Shown here one piece after another: positions 3,560 to 46,757 of a stretch of DNA of 64,000 nt. The DNA comes from Clostridiales bacterium (GTDB lineage Bacteria; Bacillota; Clostridia; Christensenellales; UBA1242). Both the position numbers and the translations under genes were made by a program. The notes below the pieces were generated by a model that was given only the letters and a program-made list of their open reading frames with translations, made no database searches and was not told the origin of the DNA. Location of the stretch: NCBI GenBank assembly GCA_015055815.1, contig SVHM01000002.1, positions 172,296-236,295 on the forward strand, in the 5' to 3' direction. How positions within the stretch are numbered: position 1 is the first letter of the stretch; each line of letters opens with the position of its first letter.

Positions 3560-4280
3560 AGCACTCTCCTTGAAGCTTTGAACAAGCCCTAATTTCTTTT
3601 AAGTTTGGAAGTATCTCTTCAGGAGTTCCATATGAAGATATTTTTGAACTATCCATTACAATAACCTTATCGGCAATTTTAATAATTTTTTCTTGGTGAG
3701 AAATTATTATATTCGCAGAATTATTAACAGCTTTATTTTCATTAAATGCACTTATTAGCCCGTCAAAACTCCACAAATCAATACCCGCTTCCGGCTCATC
3801 AAACATATTAAGCCTTGCATTTCTTGCAAGAGTTGTTGCAATCTCAATCCTTTTTAATTCCCCACCCGAAAGACTATCATCAATATCTCTATCTATATAA
3901 TCTCTAGCACAAAGCCCAACTCTTGACAAGTAATTACACACTTCATTTATTTTACTATTTGTTTTTTGAGCAGTGTTAAGCAAATCTTTTACCTTTAGCC
4001 CTTTAAATCTTACAGGAGTTTGAAAAGCATATGCCAAGCCTAGTTTAGCCCTATCTGTAATAGACATAGTTGTAATATTTACGCCATCAAAATAAATTTT
4101 ACCAGAAGTGACAGGCAAAATACCCATGATAATTTTCATAAGTGTACTCTTCCCACTACCATTATGACCAGTAATAACAACCATTTCTCCATCGTTTATG
4201 GTTAAATTTATATTTTTTAATATATATTTTTGTTTGCCATCTTCTTCTACCATATAGCAAACATTATCAAGTTTTAACAT
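3552..4280 (-). CDS. sufC: SufC-like ABC ATPase
   Basis: Walker A GHNGSGKST, signature LSGGELKR, Walker B MFDEPEAGID. No permease domain. Coupled to the SufB/D-like gene. Confidence 0.75.
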   Translation of the reverse strand: MLKLDNVCYMVEEDGKQKYILKNINLTINDGEMVVITGHNGSGKSTLMKIIMGILPVTSGKIYFDGVNITTMSITDRAKLGLAYAFQTPVRFKGLKVKDLLNTAQKTNSKINEVCNYLSRVGLCARDYIDRDIDDSLSGGELKRIEIATTLARNARLNMFDEPEAGIDLWSFDGLISAFNENKAVNNSANIIISHQEKIIKIADKVIVMDSSKISSYGTPEEILPNLKEIRACSKLQGECYE

Positions 4281-19481: not shown

Positions 19482-22400
19482 TTATCCAATATCATAATTA
19501 CTTAAGTCTTTATCTGAAATTTTTGACTTCTTTACTTTTCTTGCTTTAACCACTTTTAAAGTAACAACCAAAACCCCCAATAGAACAATTCCAGCACCTA
19601 AAATTATAGTGTTTACAACAGCCTTATCCATTTTATCTTTGGTAATGAAGAACTCGCCATTTAGATTATTTGTTCTGAATACATAATAATCGCCTTCTTT
19701 TTTCATTGAAACTTCTACCCTTTCTCCATCTACTACTTGGTATAAACATGGATTTTTTATGTTCATGGCTTTTATTTTAACAGTATACACATAATCAACT
19801 TCATTGTTTACATTTTCAAACTTAAATGAAGACACAACATTCTTTTCTTCAACTGCTAAATTGCTTGCTGTAGCGACCATATTAAGAGCCTGAATAGAAC
19901 TATCAAATGTTCCTTCAACACACTCAATTATCGAATTTTCATTACTAATAGTCAATGCGTTTGCAATTTTTAAAATACCATTTGCTTCACCATCAAAATT
20001 ATTGTCTGTAACTTTTATTGTAAATTTGTATTCACCAACTTCTATTGGTTGCAAATTGTCTTCAAAAATATACATTACACTATCTTTATTTAGTCCACAA
20101 TTTTCATCAAAGTAAAATTCCGGCTCTTTCATCGTTCCATCATAAATAAATTCGTTTTCAGCTAATACAAAACTAATTTGCATTTTCTTTATCACTAGTC
20201 TTACAACAGAACTTCTTGATGGATTGTAGTTTTGATTACCTTCAAAAATTGCAACAACCGAATATGTCCCAACATTCACAGGACTTTCAACAACGCTTCC
20301 ATTTAAAGAATATTCATATTTAAGTTCAAATGGAAATTCCGAACTTAAACTTTGAACTTTACCATTATAAATTACAGTTTTACCTTCAAGAGTTGGTACG
20401 ATATCAGCTTTTACAATTTCATAACTACCAGTCGTCAAAGATGAAATATAATAATTTTGAAGGGGTTGCATATATGTTGAAATGCAGTACACACCAACAT
20501 CATTTCCGCCATCTCTAAATAATTTTAATTCTAGCGTATCATCATATTTAAGACCGTTTATAGAATATGTCATAGGAACACATTCTTCACCATATACTTG
20601 TTCTTTATCATCAATTATAATTTCAAGACCAGCCTTTAAGATTATCAATTTCCCTGAAGTAAAGTTAATATGATAATTAGAATTATTTAGAGTTCCTAGT
20701 GAAATAATATACTCACCCACATTTTCACCAATTTCTCTTTCAAGATTTCCAGTCAACAAATCTCCATCACATAAGTTTGACACAACATATTGTAAATTAT
20801 CTTCTTCGCCGTATGTTTTTGTAGTAGTTAATGCCGTTATATATAATTCTCTAGGTAATATAACATATTTACCGTTATTTACAATTAAATTATAATTTTG
20901 GCTAGATAGAGTACCTTGCGATATAACATACTCACCTACATTTTCACCGACTTCTCTTTCAATTTCGCCAGTAATTTGAGACTGGTCATAACTACCTTCA
21001 ATAGAATATGACAACTCAACAACTTCTGAATATCTAGTTTCAATATTATTAATATTTACTACTAAATCTTTTGGAAGTATAGTAAACTTAGATTTTGAAG
21101 CTAGAACTTTGTAATTTTCGTTATAATCATCTAACATTGAAATATCATAAGAGCCTACATTTTCACCAGCTACTCTTTCAAGATTTATACCAAGATTGTC
21201 TCCAGAAACAACTTCTCCCCTTAATATTTCATAAGAAAGAGTTGGGTCATTTTCGCCATAAATTTTTGATAAATTATTTATTCTTATTACTAATTGTCTA
21301 GGTTTAATTGAATAGAAATCTTCAACATATTTACATGAGTAATTATCACTTTCAAATGATACAAGATTAATCTTGTAAACACCTACATTCTCACCAAATT
21401 CTCTTGCAACAGAGTAGTTTACACTATCACCATCAAATACACCTTCAACAGAACACTTTATGTCTCCGTCTTCATATCGGTATATTTTATATTGACCAGC
21501 AAGTGCTGTTATCTTAATTTCTTTCTTTTCAATTTTTAAAACACCATTATACACACCGGTATAATTATTATTTAATAGTTTAATTTCAAATGGATAATTA
21601 CCAACAAGCATTGGTGTTCTTTCAAAAGTCACTTTATATTCAACATTATCTTCAACAGTAACTAAAATATTTTTAACGTCTTTTCCATATGTTTGTATTA
21701 AATTACTAGCAGTGATGCTTGCAAGTTTTTGTTTTATAGTAAGGTTAATATCTGAACTTTCAATTACATAATTTTTATTAAGAGATATAAACTCAACACG
21801 ATATGTACCCGCATTTTTAAAATCTATTTTATTTTCACCAATAAATGTATTTATATCATGCTCAATTTCTTCTGTTAAAGAATATTCAATTTCTTGCACT
21901 TCTTTATTGTATGTATAATCATTATTTAATATAGTAACATTTACAACTTTAGGAATAACCTTAACTACCCCTTGTCCATTTGCTACAACATAATTACTAT
22001 CAAGTGAAGTAAAAGTATAATTATAATCATCAACATCTATTAAAGTATCAATTTGCAAAGAAACATTTATGTCTTGCTCCAATTCATATTCAAATATAAT
22101 TTCGCTTCCAGTATATGTATATTGTGATACTATATTTATAATACTTATTGGTTTTGGAGAAATAACTATCTGACCGAATACATCTCCATCTAAAACAATA
22201 CTACCATCTAACGACACTATTTCATAGTCATATGTGCCAACATCTAATAAACTCTTTTCTTCTGAATTTTGAGTAATAGTTAATTGAATAAATGAGTTAT
22301 TTGTATAATCATTTCCACCTATTGAAGTAGCAACAAATAGTAAAGTATTTCCGTTTTCATCATAAATTAAATTCTTATCAACCACTTCAATTGTCACTTT

Positions 22401-25124
22401 TGCAACAATTATTTCAATTTCCCCAGTATAGTTTAATAGTTCATAGTTTACATCACTTGTAAAGAAAGTATATGTATACACCCCAACCGCAACTGGAGAT
22501 ACATCACTTCCATTTTGAGTAAACTTAAATTCTATATTTTTAAAATTAGTTGTTTCGCCATTCTCATTTTCAAAATGGAATACAAAATCTATCTCATCAC
22601 CAGTATATTCATAAATAACTCTATCTAAAACAATATTAACTTTAACAATTACAATTGAACAATTTCCTGTAGTATAAAACAAATCATAGTTAGTATCGCT
22701 TGTTGAAATTAAATACTCATAATCACCTGGTTCTTGGAATGAAGTTTCTACCCCACCCATTTTAAAAGTTATTGTCAAACCATTTACAAAATCAATCGGC
22801 AATAAATTTTCATCAACCATTCTAAAATTTAAGTTTTGTACTTGAGCAGTATAATCGTATTCATTTTGTAACAAATCAAAATACACAGAAACTCTTGAAA
22901 TAGAACACACACCTGTATTATTAGTAAAAATATAATTTTCTTCGTCTACTGGAAGAATTGTATATGCATAATCGCCACTATTTAAAAAGTCCACTGTACT
23001 ATCATTTTGAGTATAAACAACTACCCCATCAACACCATCTGACAAATATTCAATATTTTGTATACTTGCCGAATAACTAAATTCTGTATTTAAAATTTCG
23101 ATATCTATTGTACGCTTAAATATTTCACAAGTTAGCACACCGTTTGTAAATACATAATTTTCATTATTACTAACAAATTCTATAGAATAATTTCCAGCAT
23201 TTTTAAATTGTACCTCTGCGTCATTAATTACATATTTTATATCATAATCAAAAGTACCAAAAAAAGTATAATTTAAGTTCTGAACATTTCCGTTATAAAT
23301 CAAATTAGAATTATCACCAAATTCTATAGTTACTAATATTGGTTTGATTTTAATATACATAACACCAGAGCCTATATACTCATCATTATCTACCTTCCAT
23401 TCAACTACATAATCACCAATATTATAAAGACTAGACGGAGTACCATCTTTTGTTATAGTCATATTTAGTTCAGGGCTTTCACTTGTATTCAAAGTATAAC
23501 TAGGTTCAACAAATTTACTTTCTTCAAAAGTATATTCATCTTCATAACTTTCAATATTTAATCTAAATCTATTTTTTATTTCAAGAGACATATCTCTATT
23601 GCAAGTATAATAATGCCCCGAATTACTTTTTGAGCCTTCTTCTTTGCCAAAGTTATATAGTTTATAAAACTCATAACCACTATCAGGTAGATAATTAATT
23701 GTTACCAAATCACCATACCAAGCATGATAACTATCTTCCCCTTCACCTATGGTTGCACCTAAAATTTCAAAAGAGCCATGGATAGCAGTAACATCAACTT
23801 TGTATCTAGTATCATCCATTCTAAACTCTTTAACTATCATATCGTCTTCGCTAGTAACATGCCCCGCTTCGTCCATAAGAAGAGCTTTTAAAACGTAGTT
23901 AGCATTTGGCTTATCATAAAACTCTAAAATATTTACACCCTTATTTAAAATGCTTGAACTAGTAGTAGGCGTCGTACCATCTAAAGTATAATAAACTGTT
24001 TCTTGGCTTGGCCCTTTTTCTTCATAGTCAACATTTACTTCTATTGTCCTTGTATGAGAACCTACAGGCATAGTAATTTTAAGTTTACTTACGTTATCTT
24101 TATCTATTTTAATTTCCGACTGTGGAATAGTTTGTGTATATACATTACCTACATTATCAACAACTTCAATGGTAAAAATGCCTATTTTATCAATTGTATA
24201 TGCGTAACATTCTTTGCCGTCACCATCAGTTGTCTTGGTTGCATTATTACCATTAACTTTTACACTCTGAAGTCCCGATTGATTATCACTTGCATAGATA
24301 TATACTTTTTTGTTTTCAGAACTCCATTCAGTATTATCTAGTTTCCACGAAACCACTGGAGACGAAACGTCTGAAGATGAAATAGTTAAAGTAGGACAGT
24401 TTACATAAATTCCGTTATCTCCAGATTTTTGATATTCATTATAAAACACAGCCAAAAAACCATTAGATGAAAAACTATTCCCCGTACCAGTATAGCCAGA
24501 AACGCCTTTATCTTGACCCATAGTTATAGAAAGCAATTCATAGTTATCACTATCTGCCACTTCAGAAGATGAATATGTTTTAGAAACACTACTCAAATAA
24601 TCTAGATTTTCGTTATTAATAGTTCCGTTCTGTATTGCAAGATAACTTTTATGGTTTTTTCTTTTTACATTTGACGAAAAGTTAACTAACAAATATCCAT
24701 TTTTTGCAGCATTCATTAAATTATCGCCCAATTTAAATGCAGTTGTAATTCTTGGGTTGTTTTTAAACCAACCGGACATTGTGGTCGTTCCTTCAATAAA
24801 TATTGTATTACCACTATCTTGAATTTTATAATTACCTGTAATAGTAGATACTTCCGAATCTCCCTTTGGTCTTGTCAACGATACAGAAAACTTGTCAGTT
24901 AGATTATTTCCACCATACATATTTACAACTTCTTTTCTTTCGCTTGCAGTTACGGTAGACAAAGAAGAATATACTGGATAATCTGCATTTTGCACAGAAT
25001 AATGCTTAATGATATTAGCATCATCAGTACCAGCAGAAACAGAAATACTTGAAGTGCTTGTTGTCATTAAACACAATGCACTAGCAATTGATGCTAAAGT
25101 TAAAACAAATTTTTTTCCTTTCAT
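19482..25124 (-). CDS. giant surface protein (1880 aa): signal peptide, Ig-like/InlB-B-repeat-like modules, many MBG (YGX-type) repeats, C-terminal TM anchor
   Basis: N-terminal signal MKGKKFVLTLASIASALCLM. Recurrent K.YGE.D..L.Y...G....D.L.G.L.RE.GENVG.Y.I.....NYN. units. C-terminal hydrophobic helix plus KARKVKKSK tail. ATGA overlap with the upstream gene. Confidence 0.85.
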   Translation of the reverse strand: MKGKKFVLTLASIASALCLMTTSTSSISVSAGTDDANIIKHYSVQNADYPVYSSLSTVTASERKEVVNMYGGNNLTDKFSVSLTRPKGDSEVSTITGNYKIQDSGNTIFIEGTTTMSGWFKNNPRITTAFKLGDNLMNAAKNGYLLVNFSSNVKRKNHKSYLAIQNGTINNENLDYLSSVSKTYSSSEVADSDNYELLSITMGQDKGVSGYTGTGNSFSSNGFLAVFYNEYQKSGDNGIYVNCPTLTISSSDVSSPVVSWKLDNTEWSSENKKVYIYASDNQSGLQSVKVNGNNATKTTDGDGKECYAYTIDKIGIFTIEVVDNVGNVYTQTIPQSEIKIDKDNVSKLKITMPVGSHTRTIEVNVDYEEKGPSQETVYYTLDGTTPTTSSSILNKGVNILEFYDKPNANYVLKALLMDEAGHVTSEDDMIVKEFRMDDTRYKVDVTAIHGSFEILGATIGEGEDSYHAWYGDLVTINYLPDSGYEFYKLYNFGKEEGSKSNSGHYYTCNRDMSLEIKNRFRLNIESYEDEYTFEESKFVEPSYTLNTSESPELNMTITKDGTPSSLYNIGDYVVEWKVDNDEYIGSGVMYIKIKPILVTIEFGDNSNLIYNGNVQNLNYTFFGTFDYDIKYVINDAEVQFKNAGNYSIEFVSNNENYVFTNGVLTCEIFKRTIDIEILNTEFSYSASIQNIEYLSDGVDGVVVYTQNDSTVDFLNSGDYAYTILPVDEENYIFTNNTGVCSISRVSVYFDLLQNEYDYTAQVQNLNFRMVDENLLPIDFVNGLTITFKMGGVETSFQEPGDYEYLISTSDTNYDLFYTTGNCSIVIVKVNIVLDRVIYEYTGDEIDFVFHFENENGETTNFKNIEFKFTQNGSDVSPVAVGVYTYTFFTSDVNYELLNYTGEIEIIVAKVTIEVVDKNLIYDENGNTLLFVATSIGGNDYTNNSFIQLTITQNSEEKSLLDVGTYDYEIVSLDGSIVLDGDVFGQIVISPKPISIINIVSQYTYTGSEIIFEYELEQDINVSLQIDTLIDVDDYNYTFTSLDSNYVVANGQGVVKVIPKVVNVTILNNDYTYNKEVQEIEYSLTEEIEHDINTFIGENKIDFKNAGTYRVEFISLNKNYVIESSDINLTIKQKLASITASNLIQTYGKDVKNILVTVEDNVEYKVTFERTPMLVGNYPFEIKLLNNNYTGVYNGVLKIEKKEIKITALAGQYKIYRYEDGDIKCSVEGVFDGDSVNYSVAREFGENVGVYKINLVSFESDNYSCKYVEDFYSIKPRQLVIRINNLSKIYGENDPTLSYEILRGEVVSGDNLGINLERVAGENVGSYDISMLDDYNENYKVLASKSKFTILPKDLVVNINNIETRYSEVVELSYSIEGSYDQSQITGEIEREVGENVGEYVISQGTLSSQNYNLIVNNGKYVILPRELYITALTTTKTYGEEDNLQYVVSNLCDGDLLTGNLEREIGENVGEYIISLGTLNNSNYHINFTSGKLIILKAGLEIIIDDKEQVYGEECVPMTYSINGLKYDDTLELKLFRDGGNDVGVYCISTYMQPLQNYYISSLTTGSYEIVKADIVPTLEGKTVIYNGKVQSLSSEFPFELKYEYSLNGSVVESPVNVGTYSVVAIFEGNQNYNPSRSSVVRLVIKKMQISFVLAENEFIYDGTMKEPEFYFDENCGLNKDSVMYIFEDNLQPIEVGEYKFTIKVTDNNFDGEANGILKIANALTISNENSIIECVEGTFDSSIQALNMVATASNLAVEEKNVVSSFKFENVNNEVDYVYTVKIKAMNIKNPCLYQVVDGERVEVSMKKEGDYYVFRTNNLNGEFFITKDKMDKAVVNTIILGAGIVLLGVLVVTLKVVKARKVKKSKISDKDLSNYDIG

Positions 25125-28100
25125 TCTTCTTCTCTCCTTTTGTAAATTTGTACACTTTGCGTAGATACAGTTTGTACACTACTTGTATCTATTAACAATG
25201 CCGAATTAATACCTTCAGCATACGTATCTCCATTTGAATGTTCTACAACAATATCTGGAACACTTTCTCCTTCATTATAAATTCTAAATACATATGGGAA
25301 ACTTGCATTTGTAGGAACTGACTGACCCATTGACGAAACTGTGTACGACTCATCTATTTTAAGCCCCAACAAATCTCCCGCTTTAGAAACTGTATAGGTA
25401 AGATTAATACTTTGGAAACTATCTAAATCTTGTTCAGGAACCATGAATTTCATTTGTCGCTTATAATCTTTATATGTTTCTTCATTTGCATGATCAAGTT
25501 TAAATGTAAATGTAAAACTATCTCCGTTATCGGCTATGTTTTCAACTGATGAGATTGTATTACCCGCATATTCAGTTGCGCCTTTCTTTTTGTCTACACT
25601 ATTTAAAACCATCACATATGGATAAAAACCATCGGGGTTAGTTCCAAATTGTGTAAAATAATTTTCTTTTGAAATATCTGTCCAACTTAAAGATGAATAA
25701 TCGGCAGTTCTATTTGACTTCACCACATCACCAGATGCTCTCATATATTGAAGTTCGCCATTCTTTTCATCATAATATGCAAGGAATGCAACTCTTGGGT
25801 CGACTGTTATTAAACCTGCAATATCAATCTTTTTTCCATAATTTAAGTTTTGAATTATCCTTCTACCCAAACTATCTTTCTTATAAATTATCCTTGTTTG
25901 TTGCGCATCTGCAAATTTAGTAGGAACAACTGCTCCATCAACATATACTTGATAAGCATAAGCTTTTGATAACTTTTCATATCCTAACATTGTTAAGTAA
26001 TATAGATAATGAATATTTTCAATTTGATTATCTATATTTTTAATCATCGCAGTATTTACAGTTCCAATATTATATTCAAAAAGCACACTATCATTTTCAA
26101 GACTTGCTTTGATATTAACATCTCCACTCAAACCATCAATTGTATAACTTCCATTGTTATCAGAAATAGCTTTCTTTCCACCAGCAGAAATTATCGCCCC
26201 AGAAACAACTAAACCACCTTTTGTAGTTACGGTACCCGAAACTGAATAAACTTCTTTTACTGTAACCATTCTAGTTTCATTACAAATAATACTTCCAACA
26301 TTATCTTCTATGAAGGTATATCCCAACTTATTGTATGTTATAACCGTTTCACCCGAACAATTTTCTATTGTTACCACTTCTTGCGAATAAGTTTTATATA
26401 CATTATTTACCCCAACTCTAACATTGTTATAATCTCCACCTTGGAATTTTATCACAATAGAATATGTCATATTTACATTTAAACTATTCGAATAACCAGT
26501 AATATTTTTTACTTCAGCATTATCATACCCATCAGCCAAAATTGTTAAAGACACAACTCTATCAAGTCCAGATAATGTATAACAACCATTACTATCAGTA
26601 AGAACTTCTACACCAGTTGAAGATATTACCCTAGCCCCTGCAATTTTTATATTACCAGTTGCAACAACCCCACTTATCGAATAAGTAGCTTCAACGTTTA
26701 AATTAGCATTTGTGTTAACAAAAATTTCTTCACCAAAATCGTAACCAACTTTACTAAATTCGACATATCCTTCTTCGGTAACATTAACTAGTTCAAAGTA
26801 ACCAGAATTATTCGTTCTACTAGAAACATCTCCCAATGACACGTCTACACCCGAAACAGGAATACCATCAAGTATTACATAACCCTTTACCGTAAACATT
26901 GCTGAAACATAAATTTCTTCTGCTTTATTTATTGTAATATCATTAAACTCAAAGTTTTCTTTTGAAATAGTTAAAAGGCACTCACCACTCAAACCCGAAA
27001 TTTCAAACTCTCCAAGATCATCTGTAATAACAGTTTTGTCTCCTACCGTTATTACCGCACCTGCTAGACCACTACCAGCACTAACAACCCTTCCTGAAAT
27101 TGTATAAGTTGTTGAAATGTTTATTTCTTCAACGTATAAACCAAATGTATACTCACCCAAGTCATAACCGTCTTTTGAAAGAATATACTTATCTCCAGCA
27201 TATACCTTTTCCAATAAGCCTTCACCCATCTCATTTGTAAATAGTTCATAACTACCGTATTTAATTTTTACACCTGAAAGGTAAATACTTCCCGTTTTAA
27301 CAATAATCTTAGTTGAGTAATATCCGTTAAAATCTACTTGAGAATATTCACATACTTTGACATCTTCCCCAAAGACATAGCCATTTAAACTAACAGATAT
27401 TTGAGCTTCACCCGTCAAACCAGAAATCTCATATGCCCCATTAACTGTTTGACAAGTTTTTCCTTGAGCAGAAACAACCACACCATCAAGAGAAACACTA
27501 CCGCTAGTAACCTTACCAACAACCTTATACGAACAAGTAAAGTTTACATCATAATTTAAATCAAAAGTTTCATCAACTTGTAAATTATTATTGTCAAACA
27601 CATACCCATTTTTGCTAAGAAGTACAACACATGGTTTTGTAATCAAGTCAAACACATACTTTCCATCTTCATCAGTAATCGCTTCATTATCTCCCGCTTT
27701 CACAACTACATCAGCAACAGGTATTCCCCCAGAAGTAACAACACCACCAAACGAATAACCATTATCAGCAAAGTTGTAAACTCCACCTTTATCAATAGTG
27801 TAAGAAGATGGCTTTAGTACTATATCAGTATTCTCATCATATACAACAATATATTCGCCACTCAAGTTTTCAAAAATGTAACATCCGTTATTATCTGTAT
27901 ATGCCACACTTTCTTCACCAGTATCAAGCGATATTAAAATTATTTTAAAATTAGTTAAATTTCCATCAGCCGTTTCAACTTTTCCAGTAATACTATATGT
28001 TCCATAAGTAGTAATTTCCGAGTTAGAAGAAACTGTCACACTGTTAATAGCAAAATAGTCTTTTTCAAAAGAAAGTTCAACTTCACCAGAAAGTCCAACC

Positions 28101-29851
28101 AATTCAAATTTACCGTTTCTATCAGTTAAGCACCAAATATTTCCACTAGAAACTTTAACACCAGCAACTGAATAATCTCCACATAAAACTTGACCCTTTA
28201 CAGAATAAGTCATATTGACATTTATATCACAATTATTTACATCATAATCTAAAACGCAATCATCATAACCTTCACACTTAACAGTCATTTCTCCATCAAG
28301 ATACAAATCTTCTAGCGTTAAAATTCCCATTGTATCAACTGGATAGGTAACTTCACCAATTATCACTTCTGCATTTGGTAAAATTATATCACCACTTTTC
28401 ACAGTTACACTCAAATTGAAGATTTTATTAGGCTCAATATCAAAATTACAACTTCTAAAATTGCAACTCAAACTTTCAAAAACATATCCATCTTTTCGAA
28501 GTTCAATATCCATATCACCATGTAAATTTTGTAAAGTTATTGCTCCACCTACAACATATTCTTGTCCACCAATATTAGCATTAACTTCAAGACGATTACC
28601 AGCATAACAAACATTTAATGTTAAATCATACAATTTTTCTAGTTCTACAAATAAATCATCACTACTTAAAAGTGTAACTTGCGGAGTTTTTACATAATAA
28701 CCAGCATATTCAAATCCCAATGTCTCACCAAGTTTACAATTATCTACCATAAACTCTGACCTTGTGCAATTTATAACTTCTTCACCATGAGTAATGTTTA
28801 ATCTTTTGCTTCCATCGTCGCAGACAAACGAACCATTTAAATCAAAAACACCATCAATAATTGCATTTCCACTATCACTAACAACTAATTTATCAAATTC
28901 AAACTTGCCATTTACAAAAGTCAATTCGTTATTACCATGCAACTTTTCAAGTTTATAATCATTTCCAACTGCAACAAAGTTACTATTTCCATTTACACAA
29001 ATAGCAGTTCCATTAATAGGAATACTTCCACTAACAAAAGACAATTGGTATGAATAATACTTTTCACAATTAAACTCAATCTTTTGTCCTTCTTGAGATA
29101 TTTTAATAGCATTACCGTTTATAAAATAATTATCACTAGCAAGGGTTAACACATCACCACAATAAACATTAGCCACTTCAAATGTTAAATCATCATTAAT
29201 AATAATCGACTTATCATTCAATTTTAATGCAAAATCACTAGCACTTGCTTTTTTATCTGTAACAACTTTACCCGTAATAGTAGTAGTTCCAGACACAACC
29301 AAATCATCATTAGTAATATCAAAAGTTTGCCCGAAAAATTCAGTAGTTTCACTAATAACTTCAATAGAAACTTGACCAGCAAGAGTTGGAAGATAAAACT
29401 CACCAAAATCGTTCGTAGTAGTTGTAAACGTTCCCGCTTTGCTTGAAACACGAATAGTAGCATTTGCAATCAAATTACCGTTATTTTCAACTATACCATG
29501 CTTATCAAAAATTTTGTAACCATTAAAGTCAATCTGTTTATTATCAAAGTTGGCAAATTGAATATTGTTCTCAATTAAGTATCCGTCTTTTACTGCAGAA
29601 ACTGACGACACATCTGTAAGACCATTTACGACATAATATCCTTTGCTATCGGTAGTAGCAGTACCAACATCACAAGAAATTGTTGCACCTTCCAAAGGCA
29701 AGCCATCGGCATAAACGTAACCAGAAAAAGAATATGTTTCAACTTCTTTAGGAGTTAGAAACACAGCCTTCACATAAAACAAAACCCCAACTAATAACAA
29801 AATTGGAATTAAAATACTCAAAGAAATTTTTAACGCTTTTTTCTTTTTCAT
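25121..29851 (-). CDS. giant secreted/anchored protein (about 1576 aa) with more than 12 CarboxypepD_reg-like beta-sandwich repeats and an unassigned 450-aa C-terminal domain
   Basis: Repeats of the type Y.I.GKV...G.P..GV.V......T...G.Y.L..L.GE..L...K.GY.F. The track ORF starts at 29899, but the Met at 29851 (MKKKKALKISLSILIPILLL) gives a signal/anchor and has a GAAGGA RBS. Confidence 0.8.
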   Translation of the reverse strand: MKKKKALKISLSILIPILLLVGVLFYVKAVFLTPKEVETYSFSGYVYADGLPLEGATISCDVGTATTDSKGYYVVNGLTDVSSVSAVKDGYLIENNIQFANFDNKQIDFNGYKIFDKHGIVENNGNLIANATIRVSSKAGTFTTTTNDFGEFYLPTLAGQVSIEVISETTEFFGQTFDITNDDLVVSGTTTITGKVVTDKKASASDFALKLNDKSIIINDDLTFEVANVYCGDVLTLASDNYFINGNAIKISQEGQKIEFNCEKYYSYQLSFVSGSIPINGTAICVNGNSNFVAVGNDYKLEKLHGNNELTFVNGKFEFDKLVVSDSGNAIIDGVFDLNGSFVCDDGSKRLNITHGEEVINCTRSEFMVDNCKLGETLGFEYAGYYVKTPQVTLLSSDDLFVELEKLYDLTLNVCYAGNRLEVNANIGGQEYVVGGAITLQNLHGDMDIELRKDGYVFESLSCNFRSCNFDIEPNKIFNLSVTVKSGDIILPNAEVIIGEVTYPVDTMGILTLEDLYLDGEMTVKCEGYDDCVLDYDVNNCDINVNMTYSVKGQVLCGDYSVAGVKVSSGNIWCLTDRNGKFELVGLSGEVELSFEKDYFAINSVTVSSNSEITTYGTYSITGKVETADGNLTNFKIILISLDTGEESVAYTDNNGCYIFENLSGEYIVVYDENTDIVLKPSSYTIDKGGVYNFADNGYSFGGVVTSGGIPVADVVVKAGDNEAITDEDGKYVFDLITKPCVVLLSKNGYVFDNNNLQVDETFDLNYDVNFTCSYKVVGKVTSGSVSLDGVVVSAQGKTCQTVNGAYEISGLTGEAQISVSLNGYVFGEDVKVCEYSQVDFNGYYSTKIIVKTGSIYLSGVKIKYGSYELFTNEMGEGLLEKVYAGDKYILSKDGYDLGEYTFGLYVEEINISTTYTISGRVVSAGSGLAGAVITVGDKTVITDDLGEFEISGLSGECLLTISKENFEFNDITINKAEEIYVSAMFTVKGYVILDGIPVSGVDVSLGDVSSRTNNSGYFELVNVTEEGYVEFSKVGYDFGEEIFVNTNANLNVEATYSISGVVATGNIKIAGARVISSTGVEVLTDSNGCYTLSGLDRVVSLTILADGYDNAEVKNITGYSNSLNVNMTYSIVIKFQGGDYNNVRVGVNNVYKTYSQEVVTIENCSGETVITYNKLGYTFIEDNVGSIICNETRMVTVKEVYSVSGTVTTKGGLVVSGAIISAGGKKAISDNNGSYTIDGLSGDVNIKASLENDSVLFEYNIGTVNTAMIKNIDNQIENIHYLYYLTMLGYEKLSKAYAYQVYVDGAVVPTKFADAQQTRIIYKKDSLGRRIIQNLNYGKKIDIAGLITVDPRVAFLAYYDEKNGELQYMRASGDVVKSNRTADYSSLSWTDISKENYFTQFGTNPDGFYPYVMVLNSVDKKKGATEYAGNTISSVENIADNGDSFTFTFKLDHANEETYKDYKRQMKFMVPEQDLDSFQSINLTYTVSKAGDLLGLKIDESYTVSSMGQSVPTNASFPYVFRIYNEGESVPDIVVEHSNGDTYAEGINSALLIDTSSVQTVSTQSVQIYKRREEE

Positions 29852-30046
29852 ATGGACGTCCTTCAATTTATATATAAATTGTACTACATATTTCGACATT
29901 TTTCAATCTCTATTTTAAGAACAGTTTAGTAGAGCCCACTTCTACAAAAATGACACCATTCTCACAACTCTCATCTTTGTAGAATTTTGTAATTTTTTAT
30001 TTTCAAAAGTCTTGCAATATTAAAAAAAATAGTATAAAATATAATT

Positions 30047-30722: not shown

Positions 30723-30751
30723 TTGACAAACACCAATATATTATATAAAAT
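30723..30751 (+). promoter_or_regulatory. sigma-A-type promoter for tRNA-Thr(GGU)
   Basis: TTGACA (30723-30728), 17-nt spacer, TAAAAT (30746-30751), about 20 nt upstream of the tRNA. Confidence 0.5.
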
Positions 30752-30770: not shown

Positions 30771-30846
30771 GCTGATGTGGCACAGTCGGTAGCGCACCGC
30801 CTTGGTAAGGCGGAGGTCACGGGTTCAAGTCCCGTCATCAGCTCCA
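30771..30846 (+). tRNA. tRNA-Thr (anticodon GGT)
   Basis: Cloverleaf folded by hand. Acceptor GCTGATG/CATCAGC. Anticodon arm CCGCC-TTGGTAA-GGCGG. T arm ACGGG-TTCAAGT-CCCGT. Encoded CCA. One A-C mismatch in the D stem. Confidence 0.9.
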
Positions 30847-30964
30847 TTTTTATTTGCTGTATTTGGGGACTTTCACCCATGGTACTCGGGACCCCGTCAA
30901 TTATATTGACACCCGAGAAATATGACTTCGTCACATTGACAAGTCCCGTCATCAGCTCCATTTT
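30826..30964 (+). repeat. perfect 25-bp direct repeat (30826-30850 and 30940-30964) of the tRNA-Thr T-loop/acceptor 3' end, bracketing an 89-bp insert
   Basis: CAAGTCCCGTCATCAGCTCCATTTT occurs twice. The intervening 89 nt are 39/89 G+C (hand count) and contain a nested hairpin CTCGGG-acccc-GTCAA-ttata-TTGAC-a-CCCGAG. Confidence 0.85.
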
Positions 30965-30988
30965 AGCAACTAATTTAGTTGCTTTTTT
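30965..30988 (+). terminator. intrinsic terminator following the second (displaced) tRNA 3'-end copy
   Basis: AGCAAC-taattta-GTTGCT followed by TTTTTT. Confidence 0.7.
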
Positions 30989-31042
30989 ATTTGTCCATTT
31001 AATAAAACATTTAATTTAACACTTTCTCTATTTAACAAACTG

Positions 31043-39967: not shown

Positions 39968-41045
39968 CGTATGGGTATATGTCAGTAAGCACGTAGTTAT
40001 TGTCATTTATAATATGTTTTATGTCTCTATAAGCAGTATCCGGGTTACAACTCATATAAACAATATTTCTTGGTTTTATTGATTTAATAGCATCAATAAC
40101 CTTAATATCAAGACCAGCTCTAGCGGGGTCTACAAACACCACCAAATCACCGTAATTATTAGTAGATATTTGACCTATTACATCTTCGCATTTTCCTGTC
40201 TTAAATTCTATATTTTTTATATCATTAATTTTTGCCATATATTTAGCATTATTAACTGCAGTTACAACTTCTTCACAAGAGATAACTTTCTTACAATTCT
40301 TTGCAAACAACATACTAGTAATTCCAATACCGCTATACAAATCTATCACCGTTGTGTTTTCATTTACTTGAAGTAACGACAAGGCTTTCTTATACATTTT
40401 TTGTGCGATAGGTAAATTGACTTGTAAAAAAGAATTTGGCTCAATACTAATATTAAACGAAAGGAAGTTAAACTTTAAAAATTTTTCCCCACCAACAAAC
40501 TTTGAAATACCATCTAAAACCATATTATCACTTCTTCTATTTATGTTAAGATATAGCGATACAGTCTTAAAATTTTCTTGTAATTTTTTAAGTAGCCAAT
40601 CACGTCCAGCAAAGTTATCAGTTGTAGCAACAATTGATAATTGAATGTTATCTTCTATACATCTTGCATGGGCATATTTTAACACTCCACCATTATATGA
40701 ATTAACAGCTCTCAATTTAAATCTTGATACCCATTCTTTCAAAATAGCGACAAGTTTATTTAACCAATTATCGAATAGCATACAACCATTTATGTCAACA
40801 ACTTTACTGCTACCATCTTTGAAAAAACCAATAAGCATTTTCCCTTTCAATTCATGAAAAACCAAATGCACTTTGTTCCTATATTTATAAGGATAAAAAT
40901 TCCCAACACACTTATGTACTTTTGCATCCAAACTGCTAAAGATATTTTTAATATCATTTGTTTTTTCTACAAGCAATTCTTCATAATCTTTTTCCAGCCC
41001 AACACATCCGCCACAATCTTTTTCAAATTTACATTTCATGACCAT
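39909..41045 (-). CDS. RumA/RlmD-family 23S rRNA (uracil-5-)-methyltransferase, TRAM-less, with N-terminal Fe-S cysteines
   Basis: CKFEKDCGGCVG cluster. SAM motif IDLYSGIGITS. FVDPARAG. Catalytic YMSCNP. C-terminal DMFSFTKHVET. Confidence 0.85.
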   Translation of the reverse strand: MVMKCKFEKDCGGCVGLEKDYEELLVEKTNDIKNIFSSLDAKVHKCVGNFYPYKYRNKVHLVFHELKGKMLIGFFKDGSSKVVDINGCMLFDNWLNKLVAILKEWVSRFKLRAVNSYNGGVLKYAHARCIEDNIQLSIVATTDNFAGRDWLLKKLQENFKTVSLYLNINRRSDNMVLDGISKFVGGEKFLKFNFLSFNISIEPNSFLQVNLPIAQKMYKKALSLLQVNENTTVIDLYSGIGITSMLFAKNCKKVISCEEVVTAVNNAKYMAKINDIKNIEFKTGKCEDVIGQISTNNYGDLVVFVDPARAGLDIKVIDAIKSIKPRNIVYMSCNPDTAYRDIKHIINDNNYVLTDIYPYDMFSFTKHVETLVCLQRQV

Positions 41046-42718
41046 TTACCCCCTTTGCTAATATGGGGTTTCCTTGAAATTTTTGTTTCTTCAACTTTTT
41101 CAATTTTAACTTCATCTTTTCCCTTATACTCATCATAGTTTCCACCAAACTTTGTTATTTTCTTATTATCCAACTCAAGTATTCCGGTCGCCAAATTATT
41201 AATAAAATACCTATCGTGAGAAACAAATAAAATAGTACCTTTAAATTTACTTAGCATCTCTTCAAGCACTTCTCTTGTGTAAATATCTATATGGTTTGTA
41301 GGTTCGTCAATAATTAAAAAATTAATATCCTTTTCAAGTAGACAGGCTAGTTTTACCCTTATTTTTTCACCACCACTAAGTTTACCTACCGACTTTTCAA
41401 CATCATCTTTATAGAAATCAAATTTAGCAAGTAAGCGCCTCGCTCCTTCTTCTTTAAGTTCGGTATTGTTAGTTACATATGAAAGTATACTTTCTTTTTC
41501 CTTTTCAAAAACAAGAAGTTGCGGTAAGTATCCAACAGTTATACTACTTCCTATTTTAATTTCACCCTGATAATCAATTTCACCCAATAAACTTTTGATT
41601 AAAGTAGTTTTCCCACCACCATTTTTGCCGATTAACGCCAACTTCTCTCCATGCAATATATCCAAATTAATTGAGTTTAAAATGTTTCTATCGCCATATG
41701 TCACATTTAAGCCTTTTACCTTTACAACTTCATTCCCACCCCTATTTGAAGTCTTACAAGAAAGCTTAAGCTCTTTTCGACTATTTGGTTTTGAAACAGC
41801 AACTTCTTCCATTGCATCTATTCTTTTTTGAATTGCCTTTGCCCTTCTAAACATTGTTGGATTGTCAGATTTTCTGCCCCACTCATAAAGCCTTTCAACT
41901 GCTTTTTTAAGTTCAGCAATTTTCTTTTGTTCGTTTTTGTACTGTTCAAATTGTCTTAGTTCTTTTGCTTCTTTTTCTTTTACAAAATATGAATAATTAC
42001 CTTCATATTTTTCACCGCTATCTTCAATATCAATTATCCTATTTACCACTTTATCTAAAAAATACCTATCGTGAGATACAATCACGACCCCACCCTTAAA
42101 TCTCTGTATATACGATTGAAGCCATTCAATTCTATCAATATCCAAATGATTTGTCGGCTCATCTAAAAGAAGTAATCGTGGCGACATTAAAAGTATTCGT
42201 GCAAAATGCACAATCGTTTTTTCACCACCGCTAAGGGTATTATATTTTGCTTTTCGTATATTTTCGTTTATCCTTAAACCATTAGCAACATAGTTAATTG
42301 TATTTTCTACTTCATACCCACCATCTTCTATAAACTCATTTAACATATCACTATATTTATTAATAAGTTTATCTAAATCATTTCCAGATAGTGTAGCCAT
42401 TTTTTCAGCCATTTTATCAATTGTTTTCTGTCTCTCAAATAACTTTTCAAAACAACTTTTAAATATTTCTTCAACCACTCTATCATCATCCAAATCTGGC
42501 GCTGTTTGTTCAAGATATCCAACCGTTGTATTTTTAGCTAGAGTAATCGAACCTTTAAAGTTTTCTTTACCCGCAATCATTTTTAAAATTGTACTTTTCC
42601 CACTGCCATTCCTACCAACAAGACCTACAACATCACCATCATCAACAGAAAAAGAAATGTCCGAAAAAACATCTCCAAATCCAAAATTTTTACTAACCTT
42701 AAAAACGTCCAATATCAT
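41036..42718 (-). CDS. ABC-F family ATPase (two ABC domains, no TMD)
   Basis: Walker A GRNGSGKST and GKNGGGKTT. Signatures LSGGEKT / LSGGEKI. Charged inter-domain linker. Confidence 0.9.
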   Translation of the reverse strand: MILDVFKVSKNFGFGDVFSDISFSVDDGDVVGLVGRNGSGKSTILKMIAGKENFKGSITLAKNTTVGYLEQTAPDLDDDRVVEEIFKSCFEKLFERQKTIDKMAEKMATLSGNDLDKLINKYSDMLNEFIEDGGYEVENTINYVANGLRINENIRKAKYNTLSGGEKTIVHFARILLMSPRLLLLDEPTNHLDIDRIEWLQSYIQRFKGGVVIVSHDRYFLDKVVNRIIDIEDSGEKYEGNYSYFVKEKEAKELRQFEQYKNEQKKIAELKKAVERLYEWGRKSDNPTMFRRAKAIQKRIDAMEEVAVSKPNSRKELKLSCKTSNRGGNEVVKVKGLNVTYGDRNILNSINLDILHGEKLALIGKNGGGKTTLIKSLLGEIDYQGEIKIGSSITVGYLPQLLVFEKEKESILSYVTNNTELKEEGARRLLAKFDFYKDDVEKSVGKLSGGEKIRVKLACLLEKDINFLIIDEPTNHIDIYTREVLEEMLSKFKGTILFVSHDRYFINNLATGILELDNKKITKFGGNYDEYKGKDEVKIEKVEETKISRKPHISKGGKWS

Positions 42719-46681: not shown

Positions 46682-46757
46682 GCTGATGTAGCTCAGTCGG
46701 TAGAGCAACAGATTCGTAATCTGTAGGTCGTGAGTTCGATTCTCACCATCAGCTCCA
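46682..46757 (+). tRNA. tRNA-Thr (anticodon CGT)
   Basis: Hand-folded cloverleaf. Acceptor GCTGATG/CATCAGC. D arm GCTC/GAGC. Anticodon arm ACAGA-TTCGTAA-TCTGT. T arm GTGAG-TTCGATT-CTCAC. Encoded CCA. Confidence 0.9.

Follow-up and report, generated by a model that had tools for sequence, protein, structure and literature searches.

A short foreign insert between two copies of a tRNA-Thr(GGU) 3' end in a Clostridiales genome: a candidate integration scar with a homologue in another genus

Introduction

Integration into a tRNA gene classically leaves an intact gene on one side and, on the other side, a fragment running from the T-loop to the CCA (Reiter 1989; Williams 2002; both cited in PMC9897764), and the published tRNA-integrated examples given in that source span about 9–23 kb and larger. 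Here we describe a locus in a 64-kb stretch of DNA from a Clostridiales bacterium (the window), in which the 3' end of a tRNA-Thr(GGU) gene is repeated a short distance downstream. The locus resembles the attL and attR sites of islands, prophages, ICEs, and IMEs at tRNA genes: it is bounded by an intact tRNA and a 3' fragment, and its repeat extends from the T-loop to the CCA. It is also like them in the foreign DNA between the repeats, the sporadic distribution, and the apparent variability of the site. However, it differs from them in that only 89 bp lie between the repeats, which contain no gene and no integrase, and that no parent element was found.

CIMEs, known from the streptococcal ICESt1/ICESt3 type, and other non-autonomous att-flanked elements have att sites without a recombination module and are probably derived by deletion and mobilisable in trans. 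CIMEs are kilobases long and carry genes, and their cognate ICE is known. The unit in the window likewise combines att-like sites with the lack of a recombination module, but it is only ~0.1 kb long, is shared only in part between its copies, and has no cognate element that we could find. Regulatory RNAs can also be cut from a tRNA precursor, as is 3'ETS-leuZ of E. coli; such spacers lack a repeated tRNA 3' end and are conserved by vertical descent in their clade. Both 3'ETS-leuZ and the insert in the window lie immediately 3' of a tRNA with which they share a transcription unit (a predicted one in the window) that ends at a terminator.

Results

The intact tRNA-Thr(GGU) gene is located at 30771..30846 on the plus strand, encodes its CCA (ARAGORN; Rfam RF00005, 68.8 bits), and represents the attL-like side of the unit. 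Upstream of it, a promoter-like site (TTGACA-17 nt-TAAAAT; 30723..30751, plus strand) was recognized by its consensus match alone, at 11/12 positions. The sequence CAAGTCCCGTCATCAGCTCCATTTT forms a perfect direct repeat of 25 bp with an offset of 114 bp, with one copy in the tRNA-Thr(GGU) gene (30826..30850) and the other at 30940..30964, both on the plus strand. Copy 1 (repeat family D16) consists of the last 21 nt of the tRNA, from C56 of the T-loop to the CCA, plus TTTT, and covers the 3' part of the T-loop and the 3' strands of the T-stem and the acceptor stem. Copy 2, found by repeat search, is the displaced tRNA 3' end plus TTTT and represents an attR-like core. The repeat start, at C56 of the T-loop in the window, is one of the canonical sublocations, which are the anticodon loop, the T-loop, and the extreme 3' end. 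The 25-mer occurred exactly twice in the 64-kb window, with an expectation of 0 in shuffled sequences, and no third copy was found there when up to three mismatches were allowed. The perfect duplication of the tRNA 3' end reported in the earlier note was thus confirmed. GTCAC is also common to the tRNA and copy 2, located 5 nt to the left of the perfect repeat and past a 5-nt mismatch block (GTCAC-GGGTT-CAAGT in the tRNA vs GTCAC-ATTGA-CAAGT at copy 2). No 5' tRNA-Thr fragment was found anywhere in the 64-kb window.

The window sequence contains no terminator between the tRNA-Thr(GGU) gene and the insert. Directly 3' of copy 2, terminator search and alignment identified an intrinsic-terminator-like hairpin of eight pairs followed by a T run (30965..30989, plus strand), of which the hairpin AGCAACTAATTTAGTTGCT occupies 30965–30983.

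The tRNA-Thr(GGU) structure with its insert was base-for-base identical in contigs of 54–252 kb from six samples (L001–L004, L008, and L009), and at least two assembly pipelines yielded it. Therefore, an assembly artefact, which the earlier note had named as a possible refutation, is very unlikely and can be excluded for practical purposes as the source of the duplication at 30826–30964. We give almost no weight to a collapsed or mis-joined repeat. All of the sequence compared, the window included, comes from metagenome assemblies, and one of the contigs at this site (L005) may be chimeric, but direct evidence for an artefact was lacking, different assemblers gave the same result, and a homologous arrangement was present in three independent assemblies of another organism.

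The insert (30851–30939) contains 39 G+C among its 89 nt (0.438), compared to 0.20 in the intergenic DNA on both sides, which bears out the elevated G+C content described previously. Its left 16 nt (TATTTGCTGTATTTGG; 30851..30866, plus strand), delimited by alignment and motif counts, begin with TATTTGCTGT and are not shared with the homologous locus of the genome SIG395 described below. The following 73 nt (30867..30939, plus strand) form a module that is conserved in SIG395 and is proposed to be the arm next to attR. Within this module, a nested palindrome or hairpin was identified from the fold and the alignment (CTCGGG-ACCCC-GTCAAT-TAT-ATTGAC-A-CCCGAG; 30885..30917, plus strand), in which CTCGGG at 30885–30890 pairs with CCCGAG at 30912–30917 around GTCAAT/ATTGAC. 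It differs from its SIG395 counterpart at only two bases, both in the 3-nt centre. A second palindrome or hairpin, seen in the sequence and the fold (GACTT-C-GTCA-CAT-TGAC-AAGTC; 30924..30945, plus strand), extends across the junction of module and repeat, and its GTCAC at 30930–30934 matches variable-loop/T-stem bases of the tRNA. While the nested hairpin of the earlier note is present, the fold energy of the whole 89 nt was ordinary (z = -1.37), with 20 of 200 shuffles folding equally well.

The arm motif (A)TTTGCTGTCAA of the integrative elements at tRNA-Thr(GGU) in relatives partly recurs in the insert, with its first half at the insert start as TATTTGCTGT and in addition as TGTCAAT. The expected number of TTTGCTGT was 0.004 per 89 nt, and the insert contains GTCAAT three times (0.064 expected) and TGTCAAT twice (0.018 expected). 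This overlap with the element arms was noticed post hoc and is a hint of relatedness, not proof.

The tRNA was the sole match in Rfam 15, and no RNA family was found in the insert at either the gathering threshold or E = 10. BLAST searches of phages and plasmids yielded 0 matches, as did searches of IMG/VR with attP-type junction probes (GACAAGTCCCNNCANCAGCTCCA and others). Local alignment of the insert with the bodies of four tRNA-Thr genes showed no significant similarity (p = 0.28–1.0), and a decayed second copy of tRNA-Thr was rejected on this ground. A tmRNA, a tRNA-like gene, a tRNA pseudogene, and minus-strand hammerhead-like motifs were considered and rejected for lack of Rfam or ARAGORN support. 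A coding insert was likewise rejected, since the SIG395 copy has no ATG corresponding to that of the 48-codon ORF starting at 30879 and has a 1-nt indel there.

The palindrome, with 24 specified bases, was searched for in a set of genomes representing each GTDB species once. The single match among these species representatives was the MAG "Clostridiales bacterium SIG395", which belongs to a different genus and whose UvrC is 68% identical to that of the window. The SIG395 locus has the order tRNA-Thr(CGU), 62 nt, a 43-nt repeat of the tRNA 3' part, 129 nt, a third copy of the 3' end (CAAGTCCCTCCATCAGCTCCA), and a terminator, and this arrangement was reproduced in two further independent assemblies. 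The last 74 nt of the 129-nt stretch aligned to 30867–30939 of the window with 69 identical positions (93%). The boundaries of this identity are abrupt, starting at GGACTTT and ending at CCA, and a stretch of 43 nt is perfectly conserved. The att-like repeat around foreign DNA without an integrase, as proposed in the earlier note, is thus corroborated by a 93% identical copy behind a tRNA-Thr gene of another genus, which is also bracketed by 3'-end repeats. The parts next to the intact tRNA, of 16 nt in the window and 54 nt in SIG395, are unrelated.

SIG395 is a distant relative of the window organism, and the order of the genes for a Glug protein, a tRNA methyltransferase, and UvrC is common to both. 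By synteny, the tRNA-Thr(CGU) gene of SIG395 is the positional orthologue of the second tRNA-Thr gene of the window at 46682, which has a plain terminator and no module, and therefore the two genera carry the module downstream of non-corresponding tRNA-Thr genes. Between the orthologous tRNA-Thr(CGU) genes, identity is 60/76 (79%), compared to 93% for the module. Because the module is more similar than the orthologous tRNAs and has sharp boundaries, a recent horizontal origin fits better than vertical descent. The window's species and a SIG395-like organism were both present in sample 3300031555. A mirror model, in which the intact tRNA would be borne by an element located upstream, was rejected because the window has no 5' tRNA-Thr fragment and the genes upstream in SIG395 belong to the conserved syntenic core.

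The two bases that differ between the repeats of the two genomes (GT in the window and TC in SIG395) are those of each host's own T-stem. In the SIG395 fragment CAAG-TCCCTC, CAAG is as in the module (CGAG in the host tRNA) and TC is as in the host T-stem, with the identity to the host tRNA beginning 3 nt later than the C56 start in the window. Such a combination of CAAG from the module and TC from the host is predicted by a crossover within the T-loop or T-stem, at an attR site. The two known copies of the module are distinct sequences, in which the palindrome stems are invariant and compensatory changes inside the module are lacking; of the five substitutions, two fall in the 3-nt palindrome centre, a pattern that suggests selection rather than decay.

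The terminator of SIG395 is similar to that of the window, with a GCAAC/GTTGC stem at the same offset but after a different tRNA gene, and the two stems have one compensatory difference (T-A vs C-G) that keeps the hairpin. The location of a terminator directly after copy 2 was correctly described in the earlier note, but its identification as the tRNA's original terminator is doubtful given a similar one behind another tRNA in SIG395.

SIG395 also showed an insert of 62 nt with a repeat of 43 nt beginning in the anticodon stem (L013 296–473, minus strand; the same in L014 and L016). This 62-nt/43-nt unit looks like a second, independent mini-scar of an anticodon-loop type, upstream of the module-bearing one.

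The loci of relatives were fetched with UvrC homologues (~70–79% identical) as anchors. The module was absent from the tRNA-Thr genes of L021, L023, L025/L026, L028, and L040–L048. Five sampled relatives lacked it, and the tRNA-Thr genes of the UvrC-anchored relatives had ordinary terminators. With a covariance model of the two module copies, nothing further was recovered in 397 kb of related loci. An RNA gene conserved in all relatives, which the earlier note had named as an alternative, was not supported, as the module was absent from five lineages and its two copies showed no internal covariation.

Contig L005, from the window's species, has the same upstream gene and tRNA with a different insert (3801–4098), a variant of a 273-nt insert that we refer to as type B. 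The contig ends 1 kb past the insert. L005 is suggestive of an alternative occupant, and the contig may be a k-mer chimera. In further contigs of these samples, the 273-nt type B insert is located between another tRNA-Thr(CGU) gene and a 24-nt T-loop-to-CCA repeat (L029 9578–9874; also L030, L032, L034, and L050). It folds well (z = -3.9) with paired ends, and its right part is nearly invariant while its left part varies. No Rfam, ARAGORN, or phage match was found for the type B insert, and contigs L049 and L051 break inside it. The junctions expected are GGGTTCAAGTCCCGTCATCAGCTCCATTTTAGCAAC for an empty site and CACATTGA-CAAGTCCCGTCATCAGCTCCATTTT-TATTTGCTG for an excised circle. The empty site was found 0 times in a scan of metagenome contigs, but as this collection also missed a 23-mer present in JGI contigs (e.g., L001 and L003), its negatives are uninformative.

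Integrative elements were identified at tRNA-Thr(GGU) in relatives. In L025/L026, the tRNA-Thr(GGU) gene is followed by an element with a tyrosine integrase of 453 aa, whose family had 593 matches at E <= 1e-40 and adjoins tRNA-Thr(GGU) in every fetched locus (in L042, a 3' fragment of one). Besides a MobL relaxase, they have cargo of restriction or reverse-transcriptase type and are therefore integrative mobilisable elements. They use the same target gene as the unit in the window, and in L044–L047 the 3' end of tRNA-Thr(GGU) is identical to that of the window. However, in L042 and in a complete element in L048 the crossover is located in the anticodon loop instead of the T-loop, with a 9-nt core (CTTGGTAAG) and a displaced 3' part of 46 nt. 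No homology to the module was found in the integrase elements of L026 and L040–L048. The search for longer occupants and integrase-bearing elements, recommended in the earlier note, thus yielded a homologous module in SIG395, while the integrase elements that were found cross over elsewhere. The L026-type integrase was rejected as the cognate recombinase because of its anticodon-loop crossover and the lack of a shared module. A phage contig with a related integrase (L037/L038) was also rejected as a source, as no tRNA-like core was found near the integrase.

The complete element in L048 (2690–2900 and 11750–12180, minus strand) is a mobilisable element of ~9.3 kb with an MmeI-like restriction enzyme, MobL, and the integrase. 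A 5' tRNA fragment lies 62 nt upstream of an intact tRNA, and the opposite end has a 3' fragment of 46 nt; the acceptor pair is GCTAATG/CATTAGC in the intact tRNA and GCTGATG/CATCAGC in the 5' and 3' fragments. The L048 element thus appears to interrupt the host gene at the anticodon loop and to supply a whole tRNA-Thr of its own. Two such 5' tRNA-Thr fragments occur in series in L046 (13130–13420).

Complete tRNA-Thr(GGU) genes were also found on two IMG/VR phage contigs, L011 (100–183; sample 3300024272) and L012 (4399–4482; sample 3300023371). The first sample also holds a SIG395-like organism and the second one the window's species. The phage tRNA-Thr(GGU) differs from that of the window in one compensatory base pair in the anticodon stem, and the adjoining gene encodes a putative terminase small subunit, judged by eye from the likeness of the N-terminus. 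One of these phage contigs (L037) also encodes an integrase that is 50% identical to that of the tRNA-Thr(GGU) elements.

Close UvrC homologues place the window organism among uncultured Christensenellales/Clostridia MAGs. The gene upstream of the tRNA in the window encodes an HTH_3 (RstR/Cro-like) protein. Downstream are ORFs of 94 and 643 aa without family assignment, a DUF2201 protein (420 aa) and an 836-aa protein on the other strand, and UvrC. No integrase was found among the Pfam matches of ten large ORFs between 30047 and 45464, and the downstream genes (94, 643, 420, and 836 aa) had no integrase, phage, or defence-system assignment. The accessory island that the earlier note had placed 130 bp downstream is thus not supported as such, since the region has no integrase, third repeat, or phage or defence signature and accompanies the insert in all assemblies of the species with downstream DNA.

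Upstream of the HTH gene, two adjacent and very large ORFs of 1880 and 1592 aa (19482–29899, minus strand) matched carbohydrate-binding or CarboxypepD_reg-like domains only faintly and probably encode surface proteins. The one nearest the HTH gene is 1592 aa long in the window and 1583 or 1576 aa in metagenome contigs. An ABC-F type ATPase gene (41036–42718) is located between the genes for the Glug-motif protein and the tRNA methyltransferase in the window. It is also present in L021 and L023 and absent in SIG395, L025, and L028, a lineage-specific difference within otherwise conserved synteny.

Discussion

We consider it rather likely that the 114-bp unit is an attR-type scar, consisting of the arm of a T-loop-targeting element and the displaced tRNA 3' end, without a recombinase of its own. 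A mobile element with a tyrosine-type integrase would have recombined with tRNA-Thr(GGU) inside the T-loop. This integration would have rebuilt an intact tRNA at one end and shifted the original 3' end, now copy 2, downstream. The body of the element would later have been lost almost wholly by internal deletion, leaving 16 nt by the tRNA and the last 73 nt of the arm by copy 2, in which the palindromes and the GTCAAT/TGTCAAT repeats may be protein-binding sites. The unit lacks a recombinase gene and has probably become immobile. We favor the scar because it explains the repeat and its start, the foreign composition, the host-matching bases, the sharp boundaries, and the sporadic distribution.

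Some observations do not fit the scar well. Both known copies of the module are tiny, and no full-length parent element with the module at its end was found in the GTDB representatives (one match, also solo), in IMG/VR, or in the phage and plasmid searches. No cognate integrase was found either, and the only integrase family seen at tRNA-Thr(GGU) crosses over in the anticodon loop. The scans of metagenome contigs, uninformative as they were, yielded no empty site, and the substitutions in the palindrome centre are more in line with selection on the module than with decay. In addition, the similar terminators of the two genomes are not predicted by a simple attR model, in which the DNA to the right of the core is that of the host; a hybrid site formed by serial integrations could account for the likeness.

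The earlier note had left a choice between a deletion remnant, a CIME-like element, and an RNA carried on the tRNA transcript. Although these options are not fully separable, the data are better matched by a remnant of related larger elements than by a mini-element moving as a unit, because only the right 73 nt are common to both genomes and a unit that moves whole should match throughout. A still-mobile, non-autonomous CIME- or MITE-like element composed of att sites and an arm, excised from and re-inserted at tRNA-Thr 3' ends by an integrase acting in trans from elsewhere in the genome or from a co-resident element, would be in keeping with the lack of a recombinase between or near the repeats, with the finding of short units (89 and 129 nt) bearing the module at distinct tRNA-Thr genes of the two genera, and with the co-occurrence of both organisms in sample 3300031555, and its palindromes and repeated GTCAAT resemble binding sites. 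Nevertheless, we regard it as unlikely, since the unit is present in a single copy in the window and as a single match in the SIG395 genome, the other tRNA-Thr gene of the window is unoccupied, and no autonomous element with matching arms was found, the integrase elements that were found using another crossover site. A circle of 114–150 bp, whose DNA would have to bend sharply, is also a poor substrate for recombination. The homologous tRNA-Thr-bearing DNA of phages and elements raises the separate matter of an integrase-free local duplication or gene conversion, templated by such foreign DNA or by a repair-associated insertion. The tRNA-Thr(GGU) on phage contigs of these samples is one compensatory pair away from that of the window, and the tRNA-Thr(GGU) elements of relatives appear to carry whole tRNA-Thr genes, so that homologous partners would be at hand. 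However, the flanks of these phage and element genes are dissimilar to the insert, and the repeat boundary falls at the same T-loop position in both genomes although their tRNAs differ, which suggests site-specificity and makes this origin quite improbable.

A functional small RNA or 3' external transcribed spacer is also doubtful as an explanation of the insert. According to this model, the promoter at 30723 would drive transcription through the tRNA, the insert, the tRNA-like tail, and the terminator, and processing would free an RNA of ~140 nt with two conserved hairpins. The gap between tRNA and insert without a terminator, the good terminator right after copy 2, and the G+C content, which is high for an intergenic region, are consistent with such a transcript. 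So are the perfectly conserved 43-nt stretch, with changes confined to the hairpin loop and unpaired parts, and the compensatory difference (T-A vs C-G) by which the terminator hairpin is kept. On the other hand, the insert folds no better than ordinary sequence (z = -1.37), has no Rfam family even at E = 10, and includes a module free of compensatory pairs. Five related lineages lack it, as does the orthologous tRNA gene of the window, and 93% identity across genera with orthologous tRNAs at 79% cannot be vertical conservation. An exact T-loop-to-CCA repeat that tracks the host tRNA has no obvious rationale at the RNA level.

Going beyond these readings, the module with its tRNA-like tail may be a selected, horizontally spreading non-coding cassette, not debris, that would enter behind tRNA-Thr genes through copying of their T-loop-to-CCA end, either as a trans-mobilised miniature element of ~0.1 kb or as an RNA of the tRNA-Thr transcript. 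The 62- and 129-nt inserts of SIG395 and the 273-nt type B insert of L029 would then belong to a broader class that has not been described. We put this forward tentatively and hold it to be improbable.

As a scar, the 114-bp unit on its own is a routine, ordinary kind of marker of integration at a tRNA gene that helps to delimit mobile DNA. The tRNA-Thr genes of this clade are integration hot spots, as shown by the widespread integrase family, the 62-nt/43-nt unit of SIG395, and the 24-nt repeat around 273 nt in L029. The locus thus flags these genes as hot spots in an uncultured gut or rumen lineage of Clostridia, and the non-coding arm of 73 nt, 93% identical across genera, provides a sequence tag for finding the putative T-loop-targeting parent element. 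Short inserts flanked by tRNA ends recur in the clade, and if they are mobile or functional rather than debris, they would represent a new class of miniature integrative element.
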